From an uncultured Candidatus Saccharibacteria bacterium (lineage in GTDB: Bacteria; Patescibacteriota; JAQUNI01), in contig CAZKRD010000004.1 in NCBI GenBank assembly GCA_964555185.1, positions 755 through 64,754 of the forward strand: a stretch of DNA of 64,000 nt, given 5' to 3'. Made by a program: the position numbers and the translations under genes. Every line of letters begins with the position of its first letter. The stretch's first letter is position 1. Below are positions 6,050 to 55,061 of the stretch, one piece after another. The notes under the pieces were generated by a model. That model made no database searches. It had not been told where the DNA came from and worked only from the letters and a program-made list of their open reading frames with translations.

Positions 6050-6063
6050 GATTTACAATTATT

Positions 6064-6262
6064 CTAATTATACTAATTGTTCTAATTATTCTAAGAAATG
6101 ACCAAGCCCCAATGACCAAATTAATAGAATTATTCTAATTAACCTAATTATTCTAAACAAATCCCAATAACCAATGACCCAAAATTAATTTTATTTTTTG
6201 GGGTTTGGGACTTAGTCATTATTTAGAACAATTAGTATAATTAGAACAATTAGTATAATTTT
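6064..6262. mobile_element. MITE-like non-autonomous element with 18-bp terminal inverted repeats (attatactaattgttcta ... tagaacaattagtataat, the right TIR tandemly doubled). Internal ccaatgacc modules and a central imperfect palindrome
   Basis: The left TIR at ~6067-6084 is the exact reverse complement of tagaacaattagtataat at 6225-6242 and 6243-6260. Confidence 0.55.
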
Positions 6263-6270
6263 CTTCCCTT

Positions 6271-9200: not shown

Positions 9201-12200
9201 CAAACCTCGTCGACTTGAAGGTCGTACTGGGAGTTATGCTCAACAACTTAGAATGGGCGCCGCTAGCTGTACCCATTATTTGTATCAAGACATAGCTGGG
9301 TATGAAGATTTTAAAGGTAAATATCTGACCTTAAGCGCTTGGGTTAATGGTAACTGGAGTATTGGCGCTGGCTCTTGCACACCTCCTTATATTATGATTG
9401 ATGATGGTGTGTCAACTGTCTCGTCAGAAACAAAGAGCGTTGATGATGGTTGGGAGAAGTTAATAATCACTAAGCTGATAAGTGATAGCGCAACCAAAAT
9501 CAGAGTAAGATTATATGTGCCTTATTATATTTATTCAACATGGGATGATATTTCTCTTGTTGTCCTTGATGATATTTCTCCAAGTACGGCTACGCCGTCA
9601 ACCGAGGCAAATTCTTTTGGCACAGGTAAGTGGAGCGACACGAACGGCGCATTTCTGGTTGACGGCGGAGATACTTTAACATACACACAATCTGGCAATC
9701 TTGACAACGAGGCAGGCACAGTGGCTTTTTGGGTGAAACCAAATGGCTACGACGAATCAACTCCAGTGGACAAATACTGGATTGACACCCGCGACTCAAC
9801 CCCAGACCAAGGGTTTTATGTGTATATGAACTCAACCGAAGACGATGTGGTATTTGCCGGCAATGACAGCGTTAATGTTTGGGCGGCCACCTCAACAGCA
9901 ATTGATTGGAGCGTTAATGCCTGGCACCACATAGCAGTAACCTACGACTGCTCACAAGCAGGTGGCTCTGACGAAGTCTACTTATATATTGATGGCTCCG
10001 TAGCGGCTTCAGATACTTCAGAAACCTGCGCTTCTTGGACTCTGCCAACTAATATGTATGTAAATAGTGATTATGCTGGAGCAAACCAAGGAGATGCTTA
10101 TCTTGATGATATTAGAACATATGACTCAGTGCTTTCATCAACAGAAATTACTGATATTTATAACAACACAAAATTGCGGACTGTTTCTGCCAACGAATGG
10201 GCGCATTTAACAGGGGTTTATTCAAAAGACGACGCTAATCTAAAAATTTATAAAAATGGGGTGTTGCAGAATACAGTGGCTGTGGGCGCCAGCTACGACT
10301 TAGCAACCAGCTCAAATAATTTAATGCTCGGCGAAGCATTTTTCGGATTTTTAGACGAGCCCCGCATATACGACTATGCTAGAACCGCTGACCAAGTTAA
10401 AGCTGACTATGTTGCTGCTTCGTCTTTGCGTGGAGCTTCTGGCAGAGCTGTAACAGTTGGGGAAGGGATTGACTCAAGCGAAGGGCTTGTGGCTCACTGG
10501 GCAATGGACGAGTCCGCGTGGGACGGCACTACAGATGAGGTTGTTGACTCCTCTGGCAATGCCAACCACGGCGTGCGTGTCGCCGATGCCAACACCACAA
10601 GCACCGCAAAATACGGCAGAGCAGGGACTTTTGATGGCACAGGGGATTATGTGGATATTGGAATCGGCCCCACTGCGGTAAACGTGGTAGCTTTTTGGGC
10701 AAATCCAGGCACCACATCAGATTATTTTATAGACTTGAACGGCTCTGCCTATATTAGCGTATCATCCGGGACTTTATCGGCAACAGGATTTACTGATCCA
10801 ACAATTTATGTAAATGGCGCAGTGTCTAATACTATCGTAGCTAGCGCGTGGCAGCACATTGTTGTTACAACAAATACTAGTATCAATGCCAGTGATTTGG
10901 ATATAGGCAGATTAGAAGGAACAGATGATTATCAAGGGGAAATTGATGATGTTAAGATGTATAGCGTTATTCGTTCAGCCAGTCAAATCCGCAAGGATTA
11001 TGAAACCGGCCCGCCACCTGACCTGCACTTAAAAATGGATGAAAACACCGGCGATACGGTTTATGATACAGCAGGAGAGAATGATGGGATTTTGGGTACT
11101 GGCTCTGGTGTTGATGTAAGGGATCCTTCTTGGGCTCCTGGTAAATATGGCAGTGGCTTAAAGCTTGATGGTTATGATGATCGTATAATAGTAAGCCATG
11201 GAAGCGCTTTTGAATTTGGAAGGGGGAATTTTACGATTGCCTTTTGGGCAAAAATAATCGACAATATTCGTATGGGAAAAGACTATTATTATGGTGAAAG
11301 CCCAGCGGGCGAGAATAGGTGGGCGATTCACTCAGCTGGCTATGGCCAAGGGATTATGTGGCAGTCTGCTAACTGCGGGGATGGCTCCAATGATGTCATG
11401 GTGGGTGCTGGCAGTAGTGGCGATTATGCTGACGGCGAGTGGCGTCATTTTGCTTTTGTTAAAAAGGATCAGATAGGATATTGGTATATCAATAGCGTTG
11501 ATAAAACCAGTTGGCGGTCTGATTCTTTTGCTGATTTTGGTTGTTCTTTGAGTAATGACAGAACTTTAGTAATGGGAAGATATACCAGATATCCTGTTGA
11601 TGGAACTGATTATATGGATGGTTCTTTTGATGATTTTAGAGTTTATAAATATGCCCGGACGCAGAAGCAGATTATGGAGGATATGAACGCAGGCCACCCA
11701 GCAGTTGGCTCGCCTGTTGGCTCGTATGTCGGCTATTGGAAGTTTGATGAGGGCTATGGCACTACTGCTTATGATAATTCTGTTAATGATAATGATTTAA
11801 CCCTTTCTAACGAATCCTGGGAAACAGATTGCAAGTTTGATAGTTGCTGGGACGGAGATGGCACAGAATATGTTTATCGCAATGATGATCCTGACTTTGA
11901 TTTTGGGGCTACTGATGACTTCGCAATCACGGGCTGGTTTAAACACGATACGATCGCTGATAACCCAGATTATCTAGTGGTAAAGAATAATGGCAAGGGC
12001 TACAAAATCTATATGGATTCTGACGGCGACCTTGCCTTTGGCATTGATGATGATGCCAGCTTTGACCCTGATGATGTAGTCGGCGATGATCAATCAAAAA
12101 ACTATGATGATAATACCTGGCACCATTTTGCCGCAATCGCAAACGATACTACTTCAATCAAACTCTATGTTGACGGTATCAAGATAGATGAAGACACCAC

Positions 12201-14038: not shown

Positions 14039-17000
14039 ATGTTTGCAAAAGTTAATCCCAGGCCCAATTTTCCAAAAATCGAAAAAAAGATTTTAGATTA
14101 TTGGGCGAAAAATAAAATATTTAAAAAAAGCGTAGACAAGAAAGCAAGCAAAGGCAACTACGTGTTTTTTGAGGGTCCGCCAACAGCAAATGGCAAACCC
14201 GGCGTGCATCATATAGAGGCGCGGGCTTTTAAGGATTTGTTTCCGCGCTATAAAACAATGCGAGGGCACAGGGTAGTAAGGAAAGCGGGCTGGGACACGC
14301 ACGGATTGCCGGTTGAATTGGAGGTTGAGAAGAATTTAGGGTTCTCGGGCAAGCGCGACATTGAGGAGTATGGGATCGAGAGGTTTAACAGGAAATGTAA
14401 AGTTTCAGTCTGGAAATACAAAGAGGATTGGGAAGAGATGACCCGCCGGATTGGTTTTTGGCTGGATATGGAAGATCCTTATGTTACTTTTGATAATGAT
14501 TATATTGAATCGGTTTGGTGGATAATAAAGCAGGTTTGGGATAAAGGATTGCTCTATCAGGGCCATAAGGTCGTCCCCTATTGTCCGCGGTGCGGAACCG
14601 CGCTTTCGAGCCATGAGGTGGCGCAGGGGTATAAGAAAGTGAAAGAGGAGAGCGTGTTCGTTAAGTTCAAAATCAAAGATCAAATCTCAAAAATCAAAAA
14701 TACAAATCAAAAGTCAAAAATTAAAATCACTTCGCGATTTTTGAATGGAAAAGAGGATGTTTATTTTTTAGCCTGGACCACGACGCCTTGGACTCTGCCA
14801 GGGAATTTGGCATTGGCTTTGGGGGAGGATATTGATTATGTTTTAGTAGAAGTAGGAGCAGGCCTTGTGCCTGCCCTGCATCGGAATGACGCAGAGCCTG
14901 CCCAGGGCGACCACAAGGGTCGCCCCTACAGAGAATGTTTCATTTTGGCCCGAGAGCGGTTGGAAATTTTAGAGGGGAAGTATAAGATAATTAAGGAATT
15001 TAAAGGTAAGGATTTGGCAGGGACCCCCTATGAGCCGTTGTATCCGGTTTTTAGCGGCGAAGAGAGCGAGCATATCTACCATTCTGTTTTGGCCGATTTT
15101 GTAACCACAGATGAGGGCACGGGGATTGTCCATACGGCTGTGATGTATGGGGAGGATGACTATCGGTTGGGAGAGAAGTTGGGGCTGCCGAAAAGACATA
15201 CAGTAAACTTACAAGGTAAATTCAAAGTCAAAAATCAACCTTCGAGTCCTGAGCCTCAGGTCGAGGGAAAGTCAAAAATAGAAGCTGCTTTGCAGCTTTT
15301 GAGAAAGATAGAGGGCAAATTTGTTAAGGATGCGGAGGGTGATATAGTTTCTGATTTAAAGAAGCGCGGATTGTTTTATAAATCCGAGATGTATGAACAT
15401 GATTATCCGTTCTGCTGGCGGTGCAAGACGCCGCTTTTATACTATGCGAAGAAGAGTTGGTTTATTGCGATGAGTAAATTGCGTAAAAAACTAAAGGAGA
15501 ATAATGAAGAAATTAATTGGGTTCCAGACTATCTCAAACACGGCCGTTTTGGTAAATGGCTGGAGGAGGTCAAGGATTGGGCTGTATCGAGGGAGAGGTA
15601 TTGGGGAACGCCGCTGCCGGTTTGGCAATGCCAAACTGGTAATTTCCAATTTCCAATTTCCAATTTCCAAACAAATTACAAATTACAAATTTCAAATTCC
15701 AGACAGTGTGGTAATGTTAGAGTTATTGGTTCTGTAAAAGAGTTAGAAAAATTGAGTAATAGGAAAATTGGGGATTTGCATCGGCCGGATATTGACAAGA
15801 TTAAGTTTAAATGTGAAAAATGCGGCGGGGAGATGAGGAGAGTATTGGAGGTAATTGATTGTTGGTTTGATGCGGGTTCAATGCCGTTTGCCCAGTATCA
15901 TTATCCATTTGAAAATAAGGCAAAGATAGACCGAGGAGAGCAGTACCCTGCTGATTTTATTTGCGAGGCAATCGACCAGACCCGAGGCTGGTTTTATACG
16001 CTTTTGGCGATTTCAACGCTCTTAGATAAGGGCACTTCTTATAAAAATGTGATTTCTTTGGGTCATGTTTTGGACGTTCGAGGCCAAAAAATGAGCAAAT
16101 CGCGTGGGAATGTGGTTGATCCTTTTAAAGCTTTAGAGCAATATAGCGCAGATGCTTTGCGCTGGTTTTTCTATACCGTGAATAAGCCGCAGGAATCAAA
16201 GAATTTTGACCCGCAGATTTTGCGCGATATTGTCTCGCGGTTTATTTTGACGCTGTGGAACTCGTATTCTTTTTTTGTGACGTATGCGAATATTGATAAA
16301 TTTGGTAGGGGCGACCCTAAGTGGTCGCCCGGCACGAGATTTTACAGAAGAGGGCGGCCACACGGGGCCGCCCCTACGGGGAATATTTTGGATAAGTGGA
16401 TTATTTCTAGATTAACAGGGTTGAACAAAAAAATTGTTCAATACTTGGATGATTACAATGTCTTGCGATCAGCCAAAGAGATTGAGAAGTTTGTTGACGA
16501 TTTATCCAATTGGTATATTAGGCGTTCACGCCGCAGGTTTTGGAAGAGCGAAGACGATCAGGATAAAACAGAAGGATATCAAACCTTGTATTTTGTGCTG
16601 GTCAATTTAAGCAAAATCTTAGCTCCTTTTATGCCCTTTGTTTCGGAAGAGATTTATCGCAACTTGACCGGAGACGATTCAGTGCATTTAGCCGCCTTTC
16701 CGGAAATAGATCAGAAATTATTTGATCAGAAGCTGAATCAGCAGATGGAATTTGTCCGTCAGGTTGTGGCTTCGGGCTTAAGCTTAAGGGCAAAGGCGGG
16801 GATTAAAGTTCGCCAGCCTTTAAGTAAATTCAAAGTGCAAAGTGCAAAGTGCCTGCCTTCGCCAAGGCTTCGGCAGGCAGGCAAAGTGACCGCAGGTCAT
16901 CTTGAGCGTCAGCCAAGGATCTCACCTCCTTTGTTAGAGTTGATTAAAGAAGAGCTGAATGTGAAGGAGGTTAAGTTTGTTTCTGGGCTTAAGAAGGCGA

Positions 17001-17338
17001 AAGGCTTCTTGACAGCAGAAGAGGGAGGAATTAAAGTTGGTTTGGATACGAAAGTTACTCCAGAATTAAAGCGCGAAGGGATGGCGCGCGATTTAGTCAG
17101 GGCGATTCAAGAGGCGCGCAAAAAAGCAGGCTTTCAGGTTTCAGATCGGATTGAATTGTTTGTAGAAAGAAAAGGTATGAAGTTCAATAAAGCGATTTCA
17201 GAGTGGGAAGAGTATATTAAGAAAGAGACTTTAGCAGTTAAGATTAGCGATCAGAAGGGTGATGTTGATTATAGTGAGATAGTGAAAATAGAGGGAGAAG
17301 AGGTTTGGGTAGGAGTAAAGAAGATTAAGTCAGATTAA
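14039..17338 (+). CDS. ileS: Isoleucine--tRNA ligase carrying about 6 in-frame repeat-element insertions
   Basis: Class I motifs P..ANG.PGVHH and KMSKSRGN, WTTTPWTLP, and a C-terminal Zn region. Insert coordinates are listed as separate repeat features. Confidence 0.9.
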   Translation: MFAKVNPRPNFPKIEKKILDYWAKNKIFKKSVDKKASKGNYVFFEGPPTANGKPGVHHIEARAFKDLFPRYKTMRGHRVVRKAGWDTHGLPVELEVEKNLGFSGKRDIEEYGIERFNRKCKVSVWKYKEDWEEMTRRIGFWLDMEDPYVTFDNDYIESVWWIIKQVWDKGLLYQGHKVVPYCPRCGTALSSHEVAQGYKKVKEESVFVKFKIKDQISKIKNTNQKSKIKITSRFLNGKEDVYFLAWTTTPWTLPGNLALALGEDIDYVLVEVGAGLVPALHRNDAEPAQGDHKGRPYRECFILARERLEILEGKYKIIKEFKGKDLAGTPYEPLYPVFSGEESEHIYHSVLADFVTTDEGTGIVHTAVMYGEDDYRLGEKLGLPKRHTVNLQGKFKVKNQPSSPEPQVEGKSKIEAALQLLRKIEGKFVKDAEGDIVSDLKKRGLFYKSEMYEHDYPFCWRCKTPLLYYAKKSWFIAMSKLRKKLKENNEEINWVPDYLKHGRFGKWLEEVKDWAVSRERYWGTPLPVWQCQTGNFQFPISNFQTNYKLQISNSRQCGNVRVIGSVKELEKLSNRKIGDLHRPDIDKIKFKCEKCGGEMRRVLEVIDCWFDAGSMPFAQYHYPFENKAKIDRGEQYPADFICEAIDQTRGWFYTLLAISTLLDKGTSYKNVISLGHVLDVRGQKMSKSRGNVVDPFKALEQYSADALRWFFYTVNKPQESKNFDPQILRDIVSRFILTLWNSYSFFVTYANIDKFGRGDPKWSPGTRFYRRGRPHGAAPTGNILDKWIISRLTGLNKKIVQYLDDYNVLRSAKEIEKFVDDLSNWYIRRSRRRFWKSEDDQDKTEGYQTLYFVLVNLSKILAPFMPFVSEEIYRNLTGDDSVHLAAFPEIDQKLFDQKLNQQMEFVRQVVASGLSLRAKAGIKVRQPLSKFKVQSAKCLPSPRLRQAGKVTAGHLERQPRISPPLLELIKEELNVKEVKFVSGLKKAKGFLTAEEGGIKVGLDTKVTPELKREGMARDLVRAIQEARKKAGFQVSDRIELFVERKGMKFNKAISEWEEYIKKETLAVKISDQKGDVDYSEIVKIEGEEVWVGVKKIKSD
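14668..14730 (+). repeat. In-frame AT-rich simple-sequence patch inside ileS (aaatcaaagatcaaatctcaaaaatcaaaaatacaaatcaaaagtcaaaaattaaaatcac, encoding KIKDQISKIKNTNQKSKIKIT)
   Basis: Same caaag/caaaa module family as the intergenic repeats. Codes a low-complexity K/I/N peptide between conserved IleRS blocks. Confidence 0.5.
14858..14930 (+). repeat. In-frame GC-rich insert inside ileS. It ends in a reverse-orientation REP palindrome gggcgaccacaagggtcgcccctac (14905-14929)
   Basis: 8-bp perfect stem gggcgacc/ggtcgccc plus a cccctac tail, which is the reverse complement of the gtaggggcgac head found in the RAYT gene. Confidence 0.6.
15218..15281 (+). repeat. In-frame hairpin mini-element inside ileS, flanked by the direct repeat aagtcaaaaat
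   Basis: caaagtcaaaaatcaacc-ttcgagtcctgagcctcaggtcgaggg-aaagtcaaaaatag. GC-rich palindromic core in an AT-rich gene, with an 11-bp flanking duplication. Confidence 0.5.
15641..15700 (+). repeat. In-frame heptamer microsatellite (ttccaat x4 followed by caaattacaaattacaaatttcaaattcc) inside ileS, encoding NFQFPISNFQTNYKLQISN
   Basis: The identical ttccaatttccaatttcc array also occurs in metG (28938-29003) and in the 55.06-55.14 kb palindrome. Confidence 0.65.
16352..16377 (+). repeat. In-frame REP-like palindrome inside ileS (gggcggccacacggggccgcccctac)
   Basis: Stem ggcggcc/ggccgcc plus a cccctac tail. Encodes RGRPHGAAPTG. Confidence 0.55.
16827..16890 (+). repeat. In-frame type-2 GC hairpin element inside ileS (caaagtgcaaagtgcaaagtg-cctgccttcgccaaggcttcggcaggcagg-caaagtgacc), flanked by the direct repeat gcaaagtg
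   Basis: Inverted ends cctgcc..ggcagg. The same core occurs in tgt (21617-21669) and at 57427-57470. Confidence 0.65.
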
Positions 17339-17339
17339 T

Positions 17340-17472
17340 TTTCAATTTTCAAGTACCAATTTACAATCAATTTTCAATAACCAATGATTAAATGTTCAAA
17401 CGGTTTGAAAATTTAATCATTTAAAATTATGATTTGATTGAAAATTGAGAATTGTAAATTGAAAATTAACCA
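17340..17472. repeat. AT-rich long imperfect palindrome (ttttcaa/ccaatga modules, centre caaacggtttg) filling the ileS-recO spacer
   Basis: The left arm ttttcaattttcaagtaccaatttacaatcaattttcaataaccaatgattaaatgttcaaac is approximately the reverse complement of the right arm. Confidence 0.75.
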
Positions 17473-18210
17473 ATGTATTTTTCGAAAAAAATAAAAGGGA
17501 TTGTGATTAAGCGAAGGAAGCACCAAGAGGCGGATTTGATTTTGACGATTTTTTCTGAAAGTTTAGGCAAGATTGAGGCGCGGGCCAGGGGATTGCGCAA
17601 GGCGAAAAGTAAAATGGCTGGCCAGTTGGAGCTTTTTAATCTAGTAAAAATAGAACTTCATCGCGGCAGGTTTTGGGATTTGATTATTGGCGCGGAAAGC
17701 ATTAATAATTTTTCTAACCTTAAAGCAAACCTTAAAAAATTGGTCCTTGCTCATTTTTTCGCGGAATTTGTTGACAAGTTTACGCCAGAAGGAGGGAAGG
17801 ATATCCGTTTTTACAATATTTTTCGGGATATTTTTTTGGATTTAGATCGTTTTTCAAAGAGGCGAGAGTATTTGAGAGCTTTTATTGGTGGCGAGGTTAG
17901 ACTTTTAAAACATTTAGGCCTCACTCCCTGTTTGGATCGGTGTCTCGGCTGCGGCGCTCTTCTTTCGGGCGGCCGTTTTAAATTGGGAGAAGGAGGGGTC
18001 TATTGCCCAAATTGCTCGACAGGGGTAAAGTACAGTGATTCGATTGACCAGAGGACACTTTCGTTTTTATCCCAAGAGACGCGAAGTCAGGCGCGAGAGG
18101 TCAAAGGCAATGAGCAGGATCTGAAGAAAGTCAGCTTGGCGCTGGCAGGATTCTTTGCCGCGGCCTGTCTTGAGAGGCCAAGGGCGCTTGAGTTTATTAA
18201 AAAGCTTTAA
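17473..18210 (+). CDS. recO: DNA repair protein RecO
   Basis: N-terminal OB-fold pattern (GIVIKRRKHQEADLILTIFSESLGKI) and a C-terminal CxxC...CxxC zinc finger. Confidence 0.7.
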   Translation: MYFSKKIKGIVIKRRKHQEADLILTIFSESLGKIEARARGLRKAKSKMAGQLELFNLVKIELHRGRFWDLIIGAESINNFSNLKANLKKLVLAHFFAEFVDKFTPEGGKDIRFYNIFRDIFLDLDRFSKRREYLRAFIGGEVRLLKHLGLTPCLDRCLGCGALLSGGRFKLGEGGVYCPNCSTGVKYSDSIDQRTLSFLSQETRSQAREVKGNEQDLKKVSLALAGFFAAACLERPRALEFIKKL

Positions 18211-18332
18211 TCAATTTTCAATAACCAATGAATAAATTTTCAAACAAAACCATTTTCGCAGGTTTGAAAATTAAATCATTGAACCTTCGGATTTGATTGA
18301 AAATTGAGATTTGTAAATTGAAAATTACCTTT
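18211..18332. repeat. AT-rich palindromic element, same family, with core ttttcaaacaaaaccattttcgcaggtttgaaaatt
   Basis: The core is the reverse complement of the core at 57200-57240, so the same element is present in both orientations. Confidence 0.75.
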
Positions 18333-20168
18333 ATGATCAACCTTGCCTACCCTAAAGTAGGGCCAAAGAGAAAGTCTTCGGGCAGGAAGCGCGGCATAAT
18401 TTTAGCGGTTTTAGTTTTAGTTTTTCTTTTTGGAGGAGCTTCTGGTTGGTATTTTTTTATTTTTCAAAAACAAGCGGATAATTTTACAGGCCAAGGGGTG
18501 GAAGTAAAAATCGAGGCGCCGGAGGAGGTGATTTCCGGCTCTTCTTATCAATACACGATTGAATACGTTAATAACGAAAAGGTGGCGCTTGAGAATGCCT
18601 CGCTTGTCCTTTATTTCCCCTCCGGTTTTAATTTTACTGATTCTTTACCAGAGCCGGATTCAAAGGGAGAGAGCGAAGAGGCCAATGTCGCTTTTAAGGT
18701 TCAGGGCGATTCCTCTTCCCGTACCTGGGATTTGGGAAGACTGGATCAGGGGGAGCGGGGAATAATTAAGTTTAAAGGGATTATTTTGGGGGATTTGGGT
18801 TCAACCAACGCTTTGAGTGCGCATTTGAGCTACCAGCCGGAGAATTTCAGCTCCAGTTTTTCAGCAGAAGGCGGGACTAGCGTGTTGGTTAAAAAATCGC
18901 TGGTTGATTTTGATTTAGAACTGCCCGAGAAGACAGGAAAGGGGAGAGAGGTTGAGATCGCGGTTTTATACCGTAATATCACCTCGGAAGATTTAGAGAA
19001 TGTGCGGATTATCCTGAATTATCCAGAAGGATTTTCTTTTATCTCATCAGAACCAAGAGCAGATCGCGAGGATCGGGTTTGGGATTTTCGAGTTTTGCGG
19101 CGCGGCGAGCGGGGGCGGATTGATCTTAAGGGGAAGATAGATTCGGGAGAGTCTTTAGCTGCCTTTAGCGCAGAGCTTGGGGTTGTGGATCAGTATAAGC
19201 AGTTTTTCAGCCAAGTCAAGCAGGAGAAGAAGATGATTGTTTTAAACCCCTTATTGGAAATAACCGCTACGATTAACGGCGAGGAGGAGACGAAGATCAA
19301 TCCCGGCGATGAGCTTAGATTTATCTTTACTTATGCTAATCTTGGGGATGTCAGGATTGAGGATGGAACAATCAACTTCTCTATGGAAACAGGGCTTTTG
19401 GATACCAGTTCAATCTCGATTTTAGAAGGTCATTATGATGCTAACGAATTCACTTGGGATGCCGGCTCTTCCTTGGGCTTGGCGAGGGTGGAACCGGGGG
19501 AAAAGGGCAGGGTAGAATTTGGAGCTCAACTTTTACCTGTTTTCCCCTATTCCTCTTTGGATAAGCGGAACTTGGAACTCTCGGGCAAAGCGCGTTTTGA
19601 AAGCAATAGTGTTGACGGACTCCGAGGGTTTGATTTTGAGACCGAGAGCAATGAATTGAGAGCGAAAATCAACACCGAGCTTGATTTGGTTTCGGAAGCG
19701 CGATATTTTGACCTTGATTATGAACAGGCAGGTTCAGGCCCTCTGCCGCCTAAAGTGGGGCAAAAAACCATTTATCGTATTTATTGGACGCTTTCTAACA
19801 CGACTAATGACGCGGAGAATGTTCAAATTAAAACTATCCTGCCGGAAGGGGTGGCTTTCGGGGAGGATTTTTTCTCTTCTTTTGGCAATGAATTAGAGTA
19901 TGATCCGGAGACAAGAGCCGTGATTTGGGATTTGGGCAGGGTGCAGGCCTATGCCGGCAGTGTTTTGGCAGGCGCGCGGGCTTGGTTTGAGGTTGGTGTG
20001 ATCCCGACCGCGGACCAGGTAGGCCAAACTCCGCCATTAACGGAAGAGATTTTTGTTTCGGGACAGGATTTGTTTACCGAAGCCAGAATTGAGAATGAAC
20101 ATCCGAGTTTAAATACAGAATTGACTAATGATTTGGGAGCATTGGGGAAAGGGGAGGTGGTGAAGTAA
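18333..20168 (+). CDS. DUF11 (conserved repeat domain) membrane-anchored protein. The ORF-track start at 18297 lies inside the palindromic repeat, so the ATG at 18333 is preferred
   Basis: N-terminal TM helix followed by about 4 repeats of the pattern ..Y.i...N.g...a.nv.i....P.G..f....p......W.lG.l..Ge.g.i...g. Confidence 0.6.
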   Translation: MINLAYPKVGPKRKSSGRKRGIILAVLVLVFLFGGASGWYFFIFQKQADNFTGQGVEVKIEAPEEVISGSSYQYTIEYVNNEKVALENASLVLYFPSGFNFTDSLPEPDSKGESEEANVAFKVQGDSSSRTWDLGRLDQGERGIIKFKGIILGDLGSTNALSAHLSYQPENFSSSFSAEGGTSVLVKKSLVDFDLELPEKTGKGREVEIAVLYRNITSEDLENVRIILNYPEGFSFISSEPRADREDRVWDFRVLRRGERGRIDLKGKIDSGESLAAFSAELGVVDQYKQFFSQVKQEKKMIVLNPLLEITATINGEEETKINPGDELRFIFTYANLGDVRIEDGTINFSMETGLLDTSSISILEGHYDANEFTWDAGSSLGLARVEPGEKGRVEFGAQLLPVFPYSSLDKRNLELSGKARFESNSVDGLRGFDFETESNELRAKINTELDLVSEARYFDLDYEQAGSGPLPPKVGQKTIYRIYWTLSNTTNDAENVQIKTILPEGVAFGEDFFSSFGNELEYDPETRAVIWDLGRVQAYAGSVLAGARAWFEVGVIPTADQVGQTPPLTEEIFVSGQDLFTEARIENEHPSLNTELTNDLGALGKGEVVK

Positions 20169-20214
20169 TTTTCAATTTTCAATTTTCGAATTTTCAATCA
20201 ATTTTCAATACTCA

Positions 20215-20574
20215 ATGACAAAATTTTCAAACAATAAATTTGACCTTGAGGAAAGAACAGCTAAGTTTGCTGAAAATATTATTGATTTAGTAAGAAGTAT
20301 TAAAAAAGATGATGTTAATCGCCGTATTATTAGCCAAGTAGTTAGCTCTGGAGGTTCATTGGGCGCTAATTACTGCGAGGCCAATGAGGCAGAAAGCAGA
20401 AAAGATTTTGTTCATAAAATAGGTATTTGCAAAAAAGAAACAAAAGAAGTTAAACATTGGCTCCGCTTATTAGCCAGAAGCAACCCAGAGAAAAAAGATA
20501 GAATTAGATTGTTATGGCAGGAAGCCCACGAATTATTATTAATCTTTTCCAAGATTAGAAGATCGTGTGTGTAA
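20215..20574 (+). CDS. Four-helix-bundle protein (TIGR02436 / 23S rRNA intervening-sequence protein family)
   Basis: SSGGSLGANYCEANEAESRKDFVHKIGICKKETKEVKHWLRL matches the family hallmark S..aNi.Eg..r.s..df..f..ia.gS..E. Confidence 0.7.
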   Translation: MTKFSNNKFDLEERTAKFAENIIDLVRSIKKDDVNRRIISQVVSSGGSLGANYCEANEAESRKDFVHKIGICKKETKEVKHWLRLLARSNPEKKDRIRLLWQEAHELLLIFSKIRRSCV

Positions 20575-21901
<1,327 letters not shown>

Positions 21902-27855: not shown

Positions 27856-29277
27856 TTGAAATCTGTGTCAACAGAGAAGAAATTTTATATCACCACCCCG
27901 ATTTATTATGTCAATGATAAACCGCATGCCGGCCACGCTTACACCACGATTGCAGCGGATGTTTTAGCGCGCTGGCATAGAATCCAAGGAAAGGATGTTT
28001 TCTTTTTGACTGGGACGGATGAGCATGGAGCGAAAGTAGCAGAAGCAGCAAGCGTGGCTGGTAGAAAACCAAAAGAATTTTGTGATCAAATCGCAGGCAA
28101 GTTTAAGCAGGCCTGGCAAAACCTGAATATTGATTATGACTATTTTATTCGCACTACTGATCCCAAACACCAAAAGGGAGTTATTGATTTTTTGACTCGG
28201 CTAAAAAAGGAAGGTTATCTGTATGAAAAGGATTACTCCGGATTATACTGCGTTGGTTGTGAGAAGTTTATTACGGAAAAGGAATTAGTAGGCGGGAAAT
28301 GTCCAGACCACGGCCAGGTGCCGGAACAAGTCACGGAAAAGAACTGGTTTTTTAAACTCAAGGAATTTTTGCCTCGGGTGAAAAAAAAGATATCAAAAGG
28401 TGAACTCAAGATTGAGCCAGAGAGCGCTCTCGGGGAGACGATGGGACTCTTGAAGCAAGACTTAGATGACTTTTCTGTTTCGCGCCAGAGAGTAGATTGG
28501 GGGATTAAACTCCCCTGGGATCAGAAACAGAGTATCTACGTTTGGATAGACGCGCTGTTGAATTATTGGACCGCGGTAAAAGAAGCGGGGCGCGGGAAAT
28601 ATTGGCCGCCGGATTTGCATTTGATTGGCAAGGATATTTTGAAATTTCACGCTGTCTTCTGGCCGGCAATGCTGCTCGCGGCAGGCGAAGATTTGCTGCC
28701 TCGCCAGATTTTTGTCCATGGTTACTTCACGATCAATGGCCAGAAGATGTCCAAGACCCTGGGTAATGTGATTGACCCCAATGACCTGGTAAAGAAATAC
28801 GGCGCGGACGCAACCCGCTATTTGCTCTTGAGCCAATTTCCTTTTGGGAGCGATGGAGATATATCCCTTGCGAAATTAACCACAACCTATAATGCGGATT
28901 TAGCGAACGGTTTAGGGAACTTGGTGGCCAGAGTAATAAATTTCCAATTTCCAATTTCCAATTTCCAAATAAATCCCAATTTCCAATTTCCAAACTCCAA
29001 ACTTCGTAAATATAATGATTTAATGAAAGAATTAAAGTTGTTTGAGGTAGTAAAGTTTATTAGAGAGAAGATTAAAGAGTGCAATAATCTTATTGAAAAA
29101 GAGAAACCCTGGGAAATAAAAGAAAGGAATAAATTAGAGAAAATTATTGATCCGATTCTTTTGAAAATTATTACTGTCGCTGAAATGATTCGGCCTTTTA
29201 TGCCGGATACGTATAATAAGATTCAGAGGATACTGAAAACAGGAAAGAAAGAGATATTGTTTCCGAGGGTAAAATAA
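27856..29277 (+). CDS. metG: Methionine--tRNA ligase with an in-frame repeat insertion
   Basis: PIYYVNDKPHAGHAYTTIAADVLARW (HIGH-type) and KMSKTLGN. Confidence 0.9.
   Translation: MKSVSTEKKFYITTPIYYVNDKPHAGHAYTTIAADVLARWHRIQGKDVFFLTGTDEHGAKVAEAASVAGRKPKEFCDQIAGKFKQAWQNLNIDYDYFIRTTDPKHQKGVIDFLTRLKKEGYLYEKDYSGLYCVGCEKFITEKELVGGKCPDHGQVPEQVTEKNWFFKLKEFLPRVKKKISKGELKIEPESALGETMGLLKQDLDDFSVSRQRVDWGIKLPWDQKQSIYVWIDALLNYWTAVKEAGRGKYWPPDLHLIGKDILKFHAVFWPAMLLAAGEDLLPRQIFVHGYFTINGQKMSKTLGNVIDPNDLVKKYGADATRYLLLSQFPFGSDGDISLAKLTTTYNADLANGLGNLVARVINFQFPISNFQINPNFQFPNSKLRKYNDLMKELKLFEVVKFIREKIKECNNLIEKEKPWEIKERNKLEKIIDPILLKIITVAEMIRPFMPDTYNKIQRILKTGKKEILFPRVK
28938..29003 (+). repeat. In-frame ttccaat-heptamer array inside metG, encoding INFQFPISNFQINPNFQFPNSKL
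   Basis: Same array as ileS 15641-15700. It sits right after the conserved GNLVAR block. Confidence 0.65.
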
Positions 29278-30093: not shown

Positions 30094-30693
30094 ATGCAGA
30101 AGTCGCAACATCACCGAAGATCGATTAGGTTGCCGACGTATGATTATTCGCTACCGGGACATTATTTTGTGACGATTTGTTCTTATCAATGGCAGGAAAT
30201 ATTCGGGGAGATTGCTGTAGGGGCGACCCGTGGGTCGCCCGTGATGGCTTTGAATAAATACGGTGAAATTGTTCGTAATATTTGGCATACAATTCCGGAT
30301 CACCACCCCGTTGCTTTAGACGCGTTTCAAATGATGCCTAACCATATACATTTTATCATTCAACTATTGGGCAATCGTTCGGGCGGGTCACGACCCGCCC
30401 CTACGCTGGGTATTGTTGTCGGTCTATTTAAATCCGAATGCACAAAACAGATCAGACGGGCTATGGGCGATGCTAACAAAATTATTTGGCAGCGCAACTA
30501 TTACGAACACATCATCAAAACCGAAGAGTCCCTAAACCAAACCCGCGAATACATAGTTAAAAATCTAATCAGCTGGGAATTTGATTGCAACAATCCACTT
30601 AACATTTATGGAAAAATACAATCCTCAAAAAATCGAACCCAAGTGGCAAAAACAGTGGGAGAAGGAGGGCTTGAACCGGGCCCGGGATTTTAG
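30094..30693 (+). CDS. IS200/IS605-family Y1 HUH transposase of the REP-associated tyrosine transposase (RAYT)-like type. Its 3' end overlaps the leuS start
   Basis: HUH motif MPNHIHFIIQ and catalytic Tyr region IWQRNYYEHIIKTEESLNQTREYIVKN. Two REP palindromes lie inside the CDS at 30217-30240 and 30381-30404. Confidence 0.7.
   Translation: MQKSQHHRRSIRLPTYDYSLPGHYFVTICSYQWQEIFGEIAVGATRGSPVMALNKYGEIVRNIWHTIPDHHPVALDAFQMMPNHIHFIIQLLGNRSGGSRPAPTLGIVVGLFKSECTKQIRRAMGDANKIIWQRNYYEHIIKTEESLNQTREYIVKNLISWEFDCNNPLNIYGKIQSSKNRTQVAKTVGEGGLEPGPGF
30217..30240 (+). repeat. REP palindrome gtaggggcgacccgtgggtcgccc inside the RAYT gene, forward orientation
   Basis: 9-bp stem ggggcgacc/ggtcgcccc. Confidence 0.75.
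30381..30404 (+). repeat. REP palindrome gggcgggtcacgacccgcccctac inside the RAYT gene, inverted orientation. With 30217-30240 it forms a REPIN-like inverted pair
   Basis: Stem gcgggtc/gacccgc plus a cccctac tail. Confidence 0.7.
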
Positions 30694-33025
30694 CAAAAAA
30701 AAGAAGTTTTATTGTTTGGATATGTTCCCCTATCCTTCCGGAGCCGGTCTGCACGTTGGCCACCCCGAAGGGTATACGGCCACGGATGTTGTTTCGAGGT
30801 ATCATAGGATGAAAGGCGATAATGTCCTCCATCCGATCGGCTGGGACGCTTTTGGTCTGCCTGCTGAAAACTACGCGATTTCCCAAAAAGTTCATCCAGA
30901 CAAGAGCACGCACGATAACATCAAGCGTTTTAAGTCCCAGATCAAATCCTTGGGCTTTTCCTATGATTGGGAGCGGGAAATAGACACCTCGGATCCAGAG
31001 TATTATCGCTGGACCCAGTGGTTTTTTCTTTTCTTATACAAAAACGGCTGGGCTTACCGGGCCCGGGCGCCGGTGAATTGGTGTCAAAGCTGCCAGACGG
31101 TTTTAGCCAATGAACAAGTGGTAAACGGCAAGTGCGACCGCTGTGAGGGCGCGATCAGCCAGAAAAATTTGAAGCAGTGGTTTTTTAAGGTAACTGATTT
31201 TGCGGATGATTTAATTGCCGGTTTAGATAAAATCGATTGGCCCGAGTCAACCAAGCTGATGCAGAAGAATTGGATTGGCAAAAGCAAGGGCGCGATTATA
31301 AAATTTCAAATTACAAATGACAAATTACAAACAAATTCCAAATCCAACATTCCAAAAAATTACTTTTTAGAGGCTTTTACTACTCGTCCCGATACTATTT
31401 ATGGGACAACTTATATGGTCGTAGCGCCGGAACATAAGATAATTGAAGGATTAAAAGTTAAGATAAAAAATTATAGCGAGGTTTTAAAATATGTGAAGCA
31501 AGCGAAAGAAAAAAGTGATCTGGATCGAATTGATTTGACTAAAGAGAAAACTGGGGTGAAACTCGAGGGAATTTGGGCAATTAATCCGGTAAATAAGGAA
31601 AAAATTCCAATCTATATTGCTGATTATGTTTTAATTTCTTATGGCTTGGGCGCGATTATGGCTGTGCCAGCGCATGATCAGCGCGATTGGGAATTTGCGA
31701 AAAAATTTAATCTTCCGATCAGGCAAGTGATCCAGGGAGGAGATATTAAAAAGAAGGCTTATATTGGTGATGGCAAATTAATAAACTCAAAGATTATTGA
31801 TGGACTTAATGTGCAGGCGGCGATTACTAAAATTAGTTCTTGGCTTGAGCAGAAGGAACTAGGGGGAAAGATGACAAACTACAAGCTCCGCGATTGGCTG
31901 ATCTCGCGGCAGAGGTATTGGGGCGCGCCGATTCCGATTGTTTATTGCGAGCAGTGCGGCGAGGTGCCGGCAGCAGAGCGCGATTTACCAATAAAATTGC
32001 CAAAGGATGTTGACTTTATGCCAACCGGCGAATCACCGCTTCACGGGTCCCGCGAATTTCACAAGGTAGAGTGCCCAAAGTGCGGGAGACGAGCGCGCAG
32101 AGAATCAGACACGATGGATACTTTTGTCTGCTCTTCTTGGTACTTTTTCCGCTACTGCGATCCGAGAAACAGCAAGGAATTTGCCTCCAAGAAATTATTA
32201 AAATACTGGCTGCCGGTTGATCTTTATGTGGGCGGAGCAGAACATACGGTTTTGCACTTGATGTACTCCCGTTTTTTCACCAGAGCTTTATATAGGAAGG
32301 GCTTGATTGATTTTGATGAACCTTTTTTGAAATTACGGCATCAGGGCATGGTTTTAGCTCCTGACGGCCGCAAGATGAGCAAGTCTTTGGGCAATGTCGT
32401 CAATCCTGATGACGTGATTTCAAAATACGGCGCGGATACAATGCGGCTTTATGAGATGTTTATGGGGCCCTTTGCGGATAGTATTCCTTGGAGCACAAAG
32501 GGAGTGATCGGCATGCGTCGGTTTTTAGAAAAGGTTTGGAAGATAAGGTCAAAGATTAAACCTCAAAGTCAAAAATTAGAGAAGTTGGTGCATCAGACTA
32601 TCAAGAAGGTCAGTGAGGATATTGAGAATTTTAAATTCAACACCGCGGTTTCGGCTTTGATGATCTTGGTCAAGGCAATGAAAAAAGAGGTTCAAAAAGA
32701 ACACTTTGAGGCACTTTTGCTTCTACTTTCTCCTTTTGCCCCGCATCTTTCGGAAGAGCTGTGGCAAGGTTTAGGAAATAAAGAAAGTATATTTAGGCAA
32801 AACTGGCCCAAGTACGATCCAGATCGGGTCTGGGAACAAGAAATCGAACTTGTGATCCAAGTCAATGGCAAGGTGCGGGCGCGGGTTGAAGCGCCGGCTG
32901 ATATTTCTCGAGATAAAGCTAAGAAGCTTGCCCTTGCGCAAGACAATGTCAAGAAATGGGTAGGGGATAAAAAGATTAAACGTCTTGTTTTTATCCAAGG
33001 CAGGTTAGTCAATATCGTGGTTTGA
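30608..33025 (+). CDS. leuS: Leucine--tRNA ligase. The ATG at 30608 is preferred over the ORF-track TTG at 30581. Carries one in-frame AT-rich insert
   Basis: HVGHPEGY (HIGH-type), KMSKSLGN, TTRPDT and the editing domain. Confidence 0.9.
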   Translation: MEKYNPQKIEPKWQKQWEKEGLNRARDFSKKKKFYCLDMFPYPSGAGLHVGHPEGYTATDVVSRYHRMKGDNVLHPIGWDAFGLPAENYAISQKVHPDKSTHDNIKRFKSQIKSLGFSYDWEREIDTSDPEYYRWTQWFFLFLYKNGWAYRARAPVNWCQSCQTVLANEQVVNGKCDRCEGAISQKNLKQWFFKVTDFADDLIAGLDKIDWPESTKLMQKNWIGKSKGAIIKFQITNDKLQTNSKSNIPKNYFLEAFTTRPDTIYGTTYMVVAPEHKIIEGLKVKIKNYSEVLKYVKQAKEKSDLDRIDLTKEKTGVKLEGIWAINPVNKEKIPIYIADYVLISYGLGAIMAVPAHDQRDWEFAKKFNLPIRQVIQGGDIKKKAYIGDGKLINSKIIDGLNVQAAITKISSWLEQKELGGKMTNYKLRDWLISRQRYWGAPIPIVYCEQCGEVPAAERDLPIKLPKDVDFMPTGESPLHGSREFHKVECPKCGRRARRESDTMDTFVCSSWYFFRYCDPRNSKEFASKKLLKYWLPVDLYVGGAEHTVLHLMYSRFFTRALYRKGLIDFDEPFLKLRHQGMVLAPDGRKMSKSLGNVVNPDDVISKYGADTMRLYEMFMGPFADSIPWSTKGVIGMRRFLEKVWKIRSKIKPQSQKLEKLVHQTIKKVSEDIENFKFNTAVSALMILVKAMKKEVQKEHFEALLLLLSPFAPHLSEELWQGLGNKESIFRQNWPKYDPDRVWEQEIELVIQVNGKVRARVEAPADISRDKAKKLALAQDNVKKWVGDKKIKRLVFIQGRLVNIVV
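31300..31368 (+). repeat. In-frame AT-rich repeat inside leuS (aaatttcaaattacaaatgacaaattacaaacaaattccaaatccaacattccaaaaaattac)
   Basis: Same caaattacaaa modules as ileS 15670-15700. It lies just before the conserved TTRPDT block. Confidence 0.55.
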
Positions 33026-46234: not shown

Positions 46235-46324
46235 TGGTGGGGATGGAGGGATTTGAACCCTCACGGACTTTGAAAGCCCAATGGTTTTTGAAACCATCCT
46301 GTCTACCAGTTCCAGCACATCCCC
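46235..46324 (-). tRNA. tRNA-Leu(CAA), with a long variable arm and an encoded CCA
   Basis: Reverse complement gives GGGGATG..(anticodon loop tt-CAA-aa)..long V-arm..GAGGGTTCAAATCCCTC..CATCCCC-ACCA. Confidence 0.8.
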
Positions 46325-46422: not shown

Positions 46423-47190
46423 ATGGCGCAAATCATTGCTTTGGTTAATCAAAAAGGAGGCGTGGGCAAGACCACAACCGCGGTTAATCTTGCTTCTTAT
46501 TTAGCTGATTTTGGCAAGAAGATTTTATTTTGCGATTTAGACCCGCAAGGCAATGCCACTTCGGGCTTAGGGATTAATAAGAAAGGGCTAAAACAAAACA
46601 TTTATGATGTTTTGTGCGGGCGGGCGGCTTTGTCCGATATTCTATATCAAAGCTCCTCTCCCGATATGCATATTGCGCCCGCCTCTTCTGATCTGGCTGG
46701 CGCTTCGATCGAATTGGTCTCTGTGCCCGAGCGCGAGTTTTTGTTAAAGAAATTTTTAGAGCCGGCAAAGCAAGACTACGACTATATCATTATTGATTCC
46801 CCTCCTTCTTTGGGAATTTTAACGATCAATGCCCTGACCGCTTGCCAGAGTGTTATGATTCCAGTCCAGTGTGAGTATTATGCCCTGGAAGGACTTTCTG
46901 AACTTCTTTACACCATTGATCTTGTCCAAAAGAACCTAAATCCTGATTTGAATATCTTGGGCATTGTTTTAACGATGCGGGATCGGAAAACGCGGATTGC
47001 CGCTGATGTGGTCTGCGAGGTCCAAAGGAACTTTCCGGACAAGGTTTTTGAGACAATCATTCCCCGTAATGTGAGATTGGCGGAAGCCCCGAGCTTTGGC
47101 CAGGCGATTTTAAACTACGAGCCGATGTGCAAGGGCGCGCGTGCTTACAAGCACCTGACAGAGGAGGTTATGGAGATGGGGGGAGAATAA
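46423..47190 (+). CDS. parA: Chromosome partitioning ATPase ParA/Soj
   Basis: Deviant Walker A KGGVGKTT. Confidence 0.9.
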   Translation: MAQIIALVNQKGGVGKTTTAVNLASYLADFGKKILFCDLDPQGNATSGLGINKKGLKQNIYDVLCGRAALSDILYQSSSPDMHIAPASSDLAGASIELVSVPEREFLLKKFLEPAKQDYDYIIIDSPPSLGILTINALTACQSVMIPVQCEYYALEGLSELLYTIDLVQKNLNPDLNILGIVLTMRDRKTRIAADVVCEVQRNFPDKVFETIIPRNVRLAEAPSFGQAILNYEPMCKGARAYKHLTEEVMEMGGE

Positions 47191-47349
47191 TTCTTAATTC
47201 TTAATTCTTAATTTTTATTGAATTTTTAATGACCTAATTTTTAATTTTTAAACATCCTATTATTCCAAATTTATCTTGTTTAAAAATTAAATCATTAAAA
47301 ATTAAACATTGATTAAGAATTTAAAATTTAAAATTATAAATTCAAATTT
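47191..47349. repeat. AT-rich palindromic spacer (ttcttaatt x3 followed by aatttttaatgacctaatttttaattttt ... aaaaattaaatcattaaaaattaaacattgattaagaatt)
   Basis: Inverted arms read directly. Confidence 0.65.
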
Positions 47350-55060: not shown

Positions 55061-55061
55061 A

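Follow-up and report, generated by a model that had tools for sequence, protein, structure and literature searches.

The question raised by this locus is whether the open reading frame (ORF) at 30094-30693 encodes a REP-associated tyrosine transposase (RAYT), and how REP palindromes came to lie in frame within it and within tgt and ileS. The window analysed is a stretch of 64,000 nucleotides from a 707-kb scaffold of an uncultured Candidatus Saccharibacteria bacterium (Patescibacteria), and all positions given are those of the window. The features of the gene are:

30094..30693, + strand: RAYT/TnpA-REP-like Y1 HUH gene, 199 aa (Pfam Y1_Tnp, alignment A1, AF2 model and 4ER8 fold)
30340..30351, + strand: HUH motif N-H-I-H (H84, H86), read from the sequence; strand 84-91 of the model
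30487..30516, + strand: W132-Q133...E138-H139...K142 block (A1), equivalent of W94/Q95/E100/H101/R104 of E. coli TnpA-REP
30550..30552, + strand: catalytic tyrosine Y153 in YIVKNL (the YIxNNP motif), from invariance in A1 and spacing from W132; helix 144-161 of the model
30608..30693, + strand: overlap of the RAYT tail with leuS, 86 nt; the true leuS start is ATG 30608 (MEKYNPQKIEPKWQ...) and the RAYT stop ends at 30693

In agreement with the original prediction, ORF 30094-30693 encodes a Y1 enzyme of the RAYT/TnpA-REP type; it is an intact, small domesticated transposase gene. Pfam profile Y1_Tnp (PF01797) matched residues 57-156 with 30.3 bits (gathering cut-off 23), and the best NCBIfam family was REP_Tyr_transpos, with 66 bits and E = 3.3e-18, under its cut-off of 80. 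A sequence search of the PDB returned marginal matches only. Comparison of an AF2 model of the protein (mean pLDDT 77) with the PDB using Foldseek gave 4ER8, E. coli TnpA-REP bound to REP, as the top match (E = 5.4e-7), and the TnpA structures of ISDra2, IS200 and IS608 came next. Alignment A1 comprises the RAYT protein and its homologues, and invariance was judged across 33 homologues: N83, H86, Q133 and Y153 are invariant, and H84, W132, E138 and H139 are nearly so. The HUH motif was correctly placed at NHIH. The tyrosine motif YYEHII, previously taken as catalytic, is not; the nucleophile is Y153, whose distance from W132 (21 residues) is the same as that from W94 to Y115 in E. coli TnpA-REP. 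In the E. coli enzyme GTAG is recognised by W94, Q95, E100, H101 and R104 (PMC6006769). Position 142 is K in the RAYT protein versus R in at least 90% of homologues, and YIVKNL stands where most A1 homologues have YIxNNP. Judging from its sequence, the ORF represents a single REP-associated tyrosine transposase that is probably functional.

The tatD gene lies 6 nt upstream of the RAYT ORF, and the downstream end runs into leuS. The conserved domain occupies 30094-30603, homology in A1 stops at about residue 170, and the final ~29 codons are leuS read through in a different frame, with no stop codon of the RAYT gene's own ahead of leuS. The overlap had been put at about 85 nt, close to the 86 nt found here; the public gene call shortens leuS to TTG at 30671. 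Together, K142, YIVKNL and the missing stop may mark mild decay of the gene. RAYT homologues occupy non-syntenic contexts.

The two palindromes within the gene are as follows:

30217..30240, + strand: in-gene REP site 1, GTAGGGGCGACCCGTGGGTCGCCC; GTAG, 8-bp stem and 4-nt loop; in frame, VGATRGSP
30381..30404, - strand: in-gene REP site 2, GTAGGGGCGGGTCGTGACCCGCCC; GTAG foot on the minus strand; in frame, GGSRPAPT

Both palindromes were already recognised in the original prediction as an in-frame, inverted pair, and both are REPs tagged with GTAG. Their GTAG feet point outward, with 140 nt between the two units. Folded as single-stranded DNA, site 1 gives -9.9 kcal/mol (z = -4.0) and site 2 gives -10.4 kcal/mol (z = -4.5). 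On the AF2 model, site 1 maps to the tip of the beta-hairpin 38-53, and site 2 to the loop joining the HUH strand and the next helix. Distant homologues in A1 lack the site 1 insertion, and the stretch at site 2 is hypervariable, which supports the proposal that the peptides VGATRGSP and ...GGSRPAPT are insertions. REPs were sought on either side of the RAYT gene and none was found, and it is therefore not a classical REPtron; flanking REPs are present in most non-Patescibacteria homologues, and the homologous locus L205 has REPs upstream.

Elsewhere in the window, REPs of the same family were located in two housekeeping genes:

21374..21397, + strand: REP singlet in tgt; in frame, VGATRGSP, same phase as RAYT site 1; net +5 aa
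14852-14876 (+) and 14905-14929 (-): ileS REP dimer A, feet outward, 28-nt spacer; encodes VGAGLVPALHRNDAEPAQGDHKGRPY
16305-16330 (+) and 16352-16377 (-): ileS REP dimer B, feet outward, 21-nt spacer; encodes GRGDPKWSPGTRFYRRGRPHGAAPT

The 64-kb window thus holds seven GTAG-hairpin units of one REP family, of the form GTAG-GGGC-N4-loop-N4-GCCC: two in the RAYT gene, one in tgt and four in ileS. The tgt copy, with its phase and peptide, had been anticipated; for ileS, the two minus-strand units had been seen and are real, but their plus-strand partners had been overlooked. The 24-mer REP pattern had 0 matches in shuffles of the window, and a looser pattern was observed 4 times against a shuffle mean of 0.15. 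Hairpins of the window REPs are perfect or near perfect, with energies of -7.7 to -11.1 kcal/mol (z = -3.4 to -5.4). In an alignment of 28 in-gene REPs, 98.2% of the cells pair, two-sided changes occur in 62 cells, a result matched by 0/500 shuffles, and columns 5-7 pair with columns 22-24 as G-C in 27-28 of the 28 sequences. A scan of the entire window with Rfam at gathering thresholds gave one match, a tRNA at 46238-46324, and none at the REPs; 6 kb added downstream of the window contained no more REPs of this family. The GTAG was also examined for a conserved CT cleavage dinucleotide on its 5' side, which was dropped as inconsistent, the flanks being GCT/GTAG at RAYT site 1 and CTC/GTAG in tgt, and neither at the ileS dimers. 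Enrichment of REPs in coding sequence was also rejected: with ~89% coding and about 5 events, the chance that all are coding is 0.89^5 = 0.56, and for REP placement in the window only the absence of the usual coding depletion is notable.

The TGT segment at the REP has the short form in 115/120 homologues, including the 75%-identical P0123. At dimer A the IleRS is ~23 aa longer than PDB IleRS, and the dimer is missing in L207, a syntenic close relative whose IleRS is ~80% identical. Dimer B is present in L207 in a degraded state, with a different 30-nt palindrome nested in its right arm, and the tgt unit is degraded there as well. Both dimer sites are length-variable linkers, that of dimer A being hypervariable. 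These comparisons support the view that the tgt and ileS copies are lineage-specific insertions, and since dimer A is absent from L207 and the tgt REP is younger than the split from P0123, the gains are fairly recent.

The notion of a REP specific to the source genome did not hold. A contig scan with GTAGGGGCGACN{6,8}GTCGCCC returned at least 120 loci, with the same core in more than 15 phyla among the matches listed and no source-genome locus among them. In the matches listed, the REP core appears to be pan-bacterial and, elsewhere, mostly extragenic: an ORF of at least 250 codons spans 38% of REP sites versus 84% of random sites. At loci homologous to the RAYT gene the picture is different, an in-gene REP being present in 71/83 loci in a first scan and 76/86 in a second, mostly at a distance of 243-300 nt from where homology starts and nearly always directly past the HUH strand. 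Site 2 is filled in 68/86 loci, across phyla; site 1 is occupied only in some homologues, most of the family having site 2 without site 1. The HUH-to-W segment stays open in 84/86 loci, with spacers of 90-291 nt in relatives, and double-foot REPs are common. In 31/55 loci, 2 edits or fewer separate the in-gene REP from a flanking REP, compared with 7/275 of the between-locus pairs. Family-wide, plus-oriented REPs occupy the three phases in the ratio 38:19:0, with 0/57 in the phase that creates TAG. The shared phase had been taken as a sign of selection; exclusion of the stop-creating phase (xxG TAG) is upheld, but nothing beyond it, and given the family ratio the 3:1 phase split in the window is unremarkable.

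The reading that we favour, with a probability of about 0.85, is that the locus encodes a RAYT with REPs as its cognate substrates, that two REP copies lie within the gene, and that ileS and tgt have received copies from the same REP family; as part of it, the ORF belongs to or adjoins TnpA-REP subclass 2.4 (Bertels group 4). The cognate substrates of the enzyme would be GTAG-footed GC hairpins, as TnpA-REP cuts single-stranded REP guided by GTAG (Corneloup 2021; PMC8266576). The in-gene REPs lie in two surface loops, one at the hairpin tip after beta-1 and the other in the connection from the HUH strand to the following helix, where they add 7-8 residues and leave the catalytic core untouched. 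Copies of the same family would have entered loops or linkers of ileS, as two inverted dimers, and of tgt, as one unit; the copying was presumably the work of the RAYT enzyme on DNA that is single-stranded at the replication fork, by analogy with the biochemistry of other TnpA-REPs. In an ~89%-coding genome, the surviving copies would be those that kept the frame, avoided the TAG-creating phase and fell in tolerant loops. We infer that the enzyme moves these REPs, and that either ongoing RAYT-mediated turnover or selection keeps the in-gene copies homogeneous.

How far selection is responsible is the point on which the main rival differs. According to it, the in-gene REPs are selected cis-elements, serving either as the gene's own binding or cleavage sites for self-limitation or autoregulation, or as a protected 'master copy' reservoir through which the REP family would persist although the genome has hardly any intergenic space. 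The site 1 REP has the same nucleotides in the homologous loci L122 and L123, and the site 2 REP in L122, L123 and L205; both are identical at 48/48 nt across the window, L122 and L123, although the proteins are just 56-63% identical. Where amino acids are identical, the codons are the same in 59/59 cases in REP1 and 58/72 in REP2, versus 51-56% elsewhere in the gene. Loop residues right beside REP1 vary in number and sequence while REP1 is constant, and the REP variants of L205 and L206 carry compensatory stem changes by which the peptide becomes VGVGRDRP or VGARRDSP. REPs in ileS and tgt, in contrast, show substitutions, an indel and the nested insertion between relatives whose proteins are ~80-89% identical. 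The filling of site 2 across phyla also speaks for a selected element. However, repeated overwriting or re-insertion from an active, homogeneous REP pool gives the same pattern; the phase at site 2 varies by lineage (45 P-T, 19 P-L, 4 P-Y), which indicates turnover, not one ancestral element; and in ~10 homologous loci an in-gene REP could not be recognised, so it is dispensable. We regard selection on cis-elements as possible but less likely than not.

A history of decay, in which the RAYT gene survives as a relic, the REPs of ileS and tgt are old fossils and nothing is active now, is improbable. The signs of mild decay in the gene (K for R at position 142, KNL for NNP, no stop codon of its own) and the degraded state of dimer B and the tgt unit in L207 would fit such a history. 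Yet the ORF is intact, with its HUH, W-Q and E-H residues and Y153, the window hairpins have kept their pairing, and the gains of dimer A and the tgt REP postdate the splits from L207 and P0123.

Less credible still is the proposal that the stretches are conserved for the function of the protein, as structural or DNA-binding loops, with the hairpins incidental. The closest homologues keep VGATRGSP and GGSRPAPT, and almost the whole family has P103 (A1). Against this, synonymous positions are frozen as well, and variants retain the hairpin and alter the peptide; on these two grounds, codon identity and compensatory stem changes, protein-level selection on the REP peptides was rejected. The near-invariant proline is accounted for by the REP foot, whose CCCC specifies Pro whatever the frame, and the P-T, P-L and P-Y phases agree with this. 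Blocks containing the in-gene REP loops average a pLDDT of 68 in the model, and the variable region lies away from the DNA-binding and catalytic surface according to Quentin et al. (PMC6006769).

The idea that the in-gene pair forms one REPIN-like mobile unit, a ~190-nt HUH-encoding cassette exchanged between RAYT genes, draws on the inverted arrangement with outward GTAG feet, as in the ileS dimers, but can hardly be maintained, for nucleotide identity is 0.65 between the REPs versus 0.61 in both the N-terminal and the C-terminal region, codon identity is 0.56 versus 0.56 and 0.51, most of the family has site 2 alone, L124 has both REPs at site 2, and the spacer aligns with homologues that have no site 1. 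The region-wise identity led us to reject the cassette. The REPIN-like pair of the original prediction likewise gives way to a family-wide site 2, a site 1 inserted separately in some members and 140 nt of ordinary coding sequence in between; the in-gene REPs are two separate loop insertions and not a transposed REPIN.

Returning to the favoured reading of a RAYT with its REPs as cognate substrates, three points are possibly new: nucleotide-identical in-gene REPs in relatives that are 56-63% identical in protein, a Patescibacteria member of the RAYTs with in-gene REPs that lacks flanking REPs, and the variation or decay of the ileS and tgt copies among close relatives. Although the RAYT genes compared have diverged deeply, the synonymous sites of their in-gene REPs are frozen, while the ileS and tgt copies drift and degrade. 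Essential enzymes of this ultra-compact genome have kept REPs as in-frame additions, and the differences between close relatives point to activity in the fairly recent past. Should the conservation of the in-gene REPs be functional, it would offer a handle on the role and regulation of RAYTs; otherwise the locus neatly illustrates a phenomenon already known. A bolder extension, which we consider unlikely, is that the Patescibacteria REP-RAYT system is almost wholly intragenic, that the gene preserves its own inverted substrates as a selected cis-element (an expression brake or a master copy), and that daughter REPs and at least two other mini-palindrome families decorate essential proteins in frame. 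Were it true, such elements would be a major source of odd protein insertions in Patescibacteria.

Among known systems, the TnpA of IS200/IS605 shares with the RAYT protein its fold and its HUH/Y chemistry. The RAYT gene differs in having neither IS ends nor tnpB, in occurring as one copy in the ~70 kb examined of the scaffold, and in scoring only 22.6 bits with the NCBIfam IS200 model, for which the cut-off is 55.

The REPINs of Bertels and Rainey 2011 resemble the ileS dimers, which are inverted REP pairs with 21-28-nt spacers and so have the REPIN/HH dimer architecture. They differ in that the two ileS dimers are mutually unlike in stems, loops and spacers, and in that 140 nt of conserved coding sequence separates the two units of the RAYT pair.

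Short palindromes in frame in housekeeping genes are known from the GTAG/CGTC REPs that Di Nocera, De Gregorio and Rocco (2013; PMC3733652) found within genes, and from the Rickettsia palindromic elements (Ogata et al. 2000, as cited there). The genes that carry them include tRNA synthetases; the elements are singlets and dimers and add 8-30 residues, presumably in loops. Patescibacteria are not among the organisms treated, which include Opitutus, Rickettsia and Xanthomonas, and no RAYT-internal copies are reported. The RPE-1 elements are longer and have no known dedicated transposase.

With the E. coli TnpA-REP/REPtron (4ER8; Ton-Hoang 2012, Messing 2012, Corneloup 2021) the RAYT protein shares the HUH/Y1 fold and the association with hairpins that have GTAG at the 5' foot, and the counterparts of W94, Q95, E100, H101 and Y115 are kept. 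Identity between the two proteins is only 20%, however, and the E. coli REPs are bulged, extragenic and gene-flanking. The E. coli enzyme also has the motifs DHLH and YIHYNP and a C-terminal extension.

Subclass 2.4 of TnpA-REP, as numbered in Quentin 2018 (BMC Genomics 19:475), is identical with group 4 of the RAYTs in Bertels et al. 2017. The RAYT protein resembles its members in several respects. [quoted passage not shown] It differs in its host, Patescibacteria being a phylum unnamed in the Quentin study, in the lack of flanking REPs, in having a second in-gene site at the beta-1/alpha-A hairpin, where Quentin lists an insertion for 2.3 only, in YIVKNL versus YIxNNP, and in a distance from the HUH motif (H86) to Y153 of 67 aa versus the subclass median of 88, the shorter distance being due to site 2 holding only one 24-nt REP. 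In-frame REPs within tnpA-REP genes are the hallmark of subclass 2.4 (Quentin et al. 2018; PMC6006769). To call in-transposase and in-CDS copies atypical was therefore an overstatement, the former being published for this subclass and the latter as intragenic REPs (PMC3733652); the oddity of the in-gene REPs is real, yet it was described in 2018 for this RAYT subfamily. That in-gene target hairpins are habitual in one RAYT subfamily is here confirmed in a phylum outside the original surveys.

Scanning of the window for GT[AG]G directly 5' of a GC-rich hairpin revealed seven units of one REP family, GTAG-G[G/A]GC...GCCC, all of which (7/7) lie in frame inside coding sequence:

14852-14876, plus strand, left arm of dimer A, ileS
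14905-14929, minus strand, right arm of dimer A, ileS
16305-16330, plus strand, left arm of dimer B, ileS
16352-16377, minus strand, right arm of dimer B, ileS
21374-21397, plus strand, REP in tgt
30217-30240, plus strand, REP1 (site 1) in the RAYT gene
30381-30404, minus strand, REP2 (site 2) in the RAYT gene
30094-30693, plus strand, RAYT ORF enclosing REP1 and REP2, 199 aa

As single-stranded DNA the units gave -7.7 to -11.1 kcal/mol (z = -3.4 to -5.4), and the 24-mer pattern had zero matches in shuffled window sequence. REPs are defined by GTAG at the 5' foot of a hairpin, and this tetranucleotide guides cleavage by TnpA-REP (PMC3733652, PMC8266576). The in-frame inverted pair within the RAYT CDS and its relatives in tgt and ileS were thus recovered as originally predicted; the two reverse copies predicted in ileS are real, but each is the right arm of an inverted dimer with GTAG feet outward, whose left arm had been overlooked. 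These numbers cover about 70 kb of the 707-kb scaffold, and the all-coding placement is statistically unremarkable, because ~89% of the sequence is coding and about five events are involved.

The RAYT ORF starts 6 nt after the end of tatD and overlaps leuS, whose conserved N-terminus runs from ATG 30608, by 86 nt (about 85 nt had been predicted). In the public gene calls for the same scaffold both genes are trimmed: RAYT starts at an internal GTG (window 30169), with loss of the conserved RRSIRLxxYDYS N-terminus, and leuS at a TTG (window 30671) 63 nt 3' of the conserved ATG, apparently chosen to sidestep the overlap. The RAYT gene has no flanking REPs and sits between unrelated genes, as do its homologues on three other Patescibacteria contigs (L122, L123, L124), unlike a fourth (L205), where REPs lie upstream.

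Comparison with homologues supported the reading of the REP-encoded peptides as insertions, since VGATRGSP (site 1) is absent in distant RAYT homologues, which align 'VD---GEM' in its place, and the site 2 stretch past the HUH strand is hypervariable in all homologues aligned. In tgt the REP makes the protein 5 residues longer than in solved structures; 115/120 homologues, including P0123 (75% identity), have the short form of this segment, and an 89% identical orthologue (P0122) carries a variant REP at the same site. Against PDB 8c8w, dimers A and B add about 23 and about 16 residues to IleRS, both at linkers of variable length among 70 representatives. In L207, a syntenic contig from a close relative (IleRS about 80% identical), dimer A is absent, dimer B is degraded with an unrelated 30-nt palindrome nested within its right arm, and two substitutions plus a 3-nt indel distinguish the tgt REP. 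Both gain and decay of REPs have therefore taken place over the time that separates these relatives.

The 30-nt palindrome (CCTGCCTTCGCCAAGGCTTCGGCAGGCAGG) represents a second in-frame mini-palindrome family, and a third, AT-rich family (AATTTCCAATTTCC...) is in frame in three aminoacyl-tRNA synthetase genes, where it encodes peptides like NFQFPISNFQ (a 23-aa IleRS insertion relative to PDB), and forms long inverted repeats occupying intergenic gaps:

16852-16881, ileS, 30-nt palindrome, LPSPRLRQAG, within a 17-aa insertion missing from L207
21626-21655, tgt, 30-nt palindrome with 3 mismatches, part of an 18-aa insertion that solved TGT structures lack
about 2530-2560 of L207, 30-nt palindrome, in the dimer B right arm
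15627-15704 (ileS), 28939-29034 (metG), 31294-31357 (leuS), AT-rich repeat in genes
17335-17469, 18206-18327, 20160-20754, 47187-47342, 55043-55170, 57152-57351, AT-rich repeat, intergenic

Elsewhere, a pair of very large ORFs (1834 and 2518 aa; 545-13827), probably encoding repetitive surface proteins, show internal direct repeats about 280-300 nt long with 72-88% identity, and a tRNA gene (46238-46324, minus strand) was the sole Rfam gathering-level match in the 64-kb window.

The two in-gene REPs match at 48/48 nt between the window and both L122, whose protein is 63% identical, and L123 (56%). Across five Patescibacteria genes, residues that agree were encoded by the same codon in 59/59 cases in REP1 and 58/72 in REP2, against 51-56% elsewhere (pairwise counts, not independent), and the residues next to REP1 differ in number and sequence. 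In divergent in-gene REPs (L205 site 1, GTAGGGGTCGGGCGTGACCGACCC; L206 site 1, GTAGGGGCGAGGCGTGACTCGCCC, and site 2, GTAGGGGCGCGGCGTGACGCGCCC, with a common loop) the stem has changed in compensatory fashion, which alters the peptide. The ileS and tgt copies, unlike these, drift between much closer relatives. Taken together, codon identity, compensatory changes and this drift point to maintenance of the in-gene REPs at the DNA level. Such constancy could stem from repeated overwriting by an active REP pool, a turnover favoured by the differing site 2 phases among lineages, or from selection for a function in cis. Peptide-level selection on the encoded residues is contradicted by the codon identity and by compensatory stems with changed peptides. 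The predicted REPIN-like pair did not hold up either: the 140-nt segment between the REPs is conserved no better than the remaining gene, and so is not REPIN cargo.

The pattern extended to 80 metagenome loci encoding RAYT homologues, compared together with five Patescibacteria loci. A GT[AG]G hairpin was present within the RAYT gene in 71/83 loci (76 by a second scan), nearly always 243-300 nt past the homology start, directly 3' of the HUH strand, and often as a 'double foot' (GTAG...CTAC). The segment from the HUH motif to the conserved Trp contained a minus-oriented REP in 68/86 loci and was an open reading frame in 84/86; site 1 REPs beyond Patescibacteria were sporadic (L128, L139, L149, L193). 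In 31/55 loci the in-gene REP matched one of that gene's flanking REPs to within 2 edits, compared with 7/275 cross-locus pairs, and an alignment of 28 showed 98.2% pairing with 62 cells changed on both sides, a level reached by 0/500 shuffles. The near-invariant Pro after site 2 arises because CCCC of the REP foot encodes Pro in any frame, in agreement with the P-T, P-L and P-Y phases observed. None of 57 plus-oriented REPs lay in the TAG-creating phase, the remaining phases dividing 38:19; this exclusion and the family-wide 2:1 preference suffice to account for the phase shared by RAYT and tgt, which had been taken to suggest selection for orientations and phases free of stop codons. In a Gemmatimonadales locus (L048 1050-1733), the tblastn match is split into HUH and Tyr halves by a gap of ~240 nt holding a REP (1265-1288), and hence a large in-frame site 2 insertion.

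REPs are usually described as species-specific. Against this, the conservation of the exact core GTAGGGGCGAC...GTCGCCC across phyla is striking: the matches listed from a contig scan (loci L002-L121) span >15 bacterial phyla, with Chloroflexota, Gemmatimonadota, Acidobacteriota, Planctomycetota, Clostridia, Gammaproteobacteria, Bacteroidota and Parcubacteria among them. Among these matches the core tends to avoid long ORFs: 38% of REP sites are spanned by one of >=250 codons, versus 84% of random sites. A different GTAG hairpin (GTAGGGACAGGGCATGCCCTGTCC; L122 7490-7513) falls inside rpiB as called there (7331-7765), an indication that REPs within genes are common in Patescibacteria.

The Y1 transposase assignment was upheld by profile search, the RAYT protein scoring 30.3 bits with Pfam Y1_Tnp (cut-off 23); its top NCBIfam family was REP_Tyr_transpos (66 bits, under the cut-off of 80), and the IS200 model reached only 22.6 bits. 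An AlphaFold model (33 homologues as input, mean pLDDT 77) comprised:

residues 22-30, beta1
residues 38-42/49-53, hairpin
residues 55-70, helix
residues 73-80, beta
residues 84-91, beta-HUH
residues 92-104, loop
residues 105-124, helix
residues 132-141, beta
residues 144-161, helix

The closest solved structure was 4ER8 (E. coli TnpA-REP with REP hairpin), followed by IS200/IS605 transposases. N83, H86, Q133 and Y153 are invariant among homologues, and H84 and W132 nearly so. The distance from W132 to Y153 is 21 residues, as from W94 to Y115 in the E. coli enzyme, which identifies Y153 as the nucleophile; YYEHII, previously proposed as the Tyr motif, is instead part of the W-Q...E-H block, to which GTAG recognition has been ascribed. 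The window gene may be slightly decayed, since its product has K142 in place of R and KNL in place of NNP and it lacks a stop codon of its own.

Judged by its sequence, the window gene is a subclass-2.4-like RAYT with predicted cognate REPs in frame, the same REP family being present in ileS and tgt. No description of REP/RAYT systems in Patescibacteria was found in the literature searched, and the absence of flanking REPs, the 48-nt in-gene identity, the compensatory variants and the contrast with drifting ileS/tgt copies may be new. In-CDS and in-transposase REPs, predicted to be atypical, have been published: TnpA-REP subclass 2.4 (Bertels group 4), whose genes characteristically carry REP sequence in frame, was defined by Quentin, Siguier, Chandler and Fichant in 2018 (PMC6006769), and intragenic GTAG and CGTC REPs, tRNA synthetase genes included, were catalogued by Di Nocera et al. 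in 2013 and related to Rickettsia palindromic elements (PMC3733652). The core finding is therefore a fresh instance of a known phenomenon, its main value lying in the nucleotide-level constancy of the in-gene REPs and the Patescibacteria setting.
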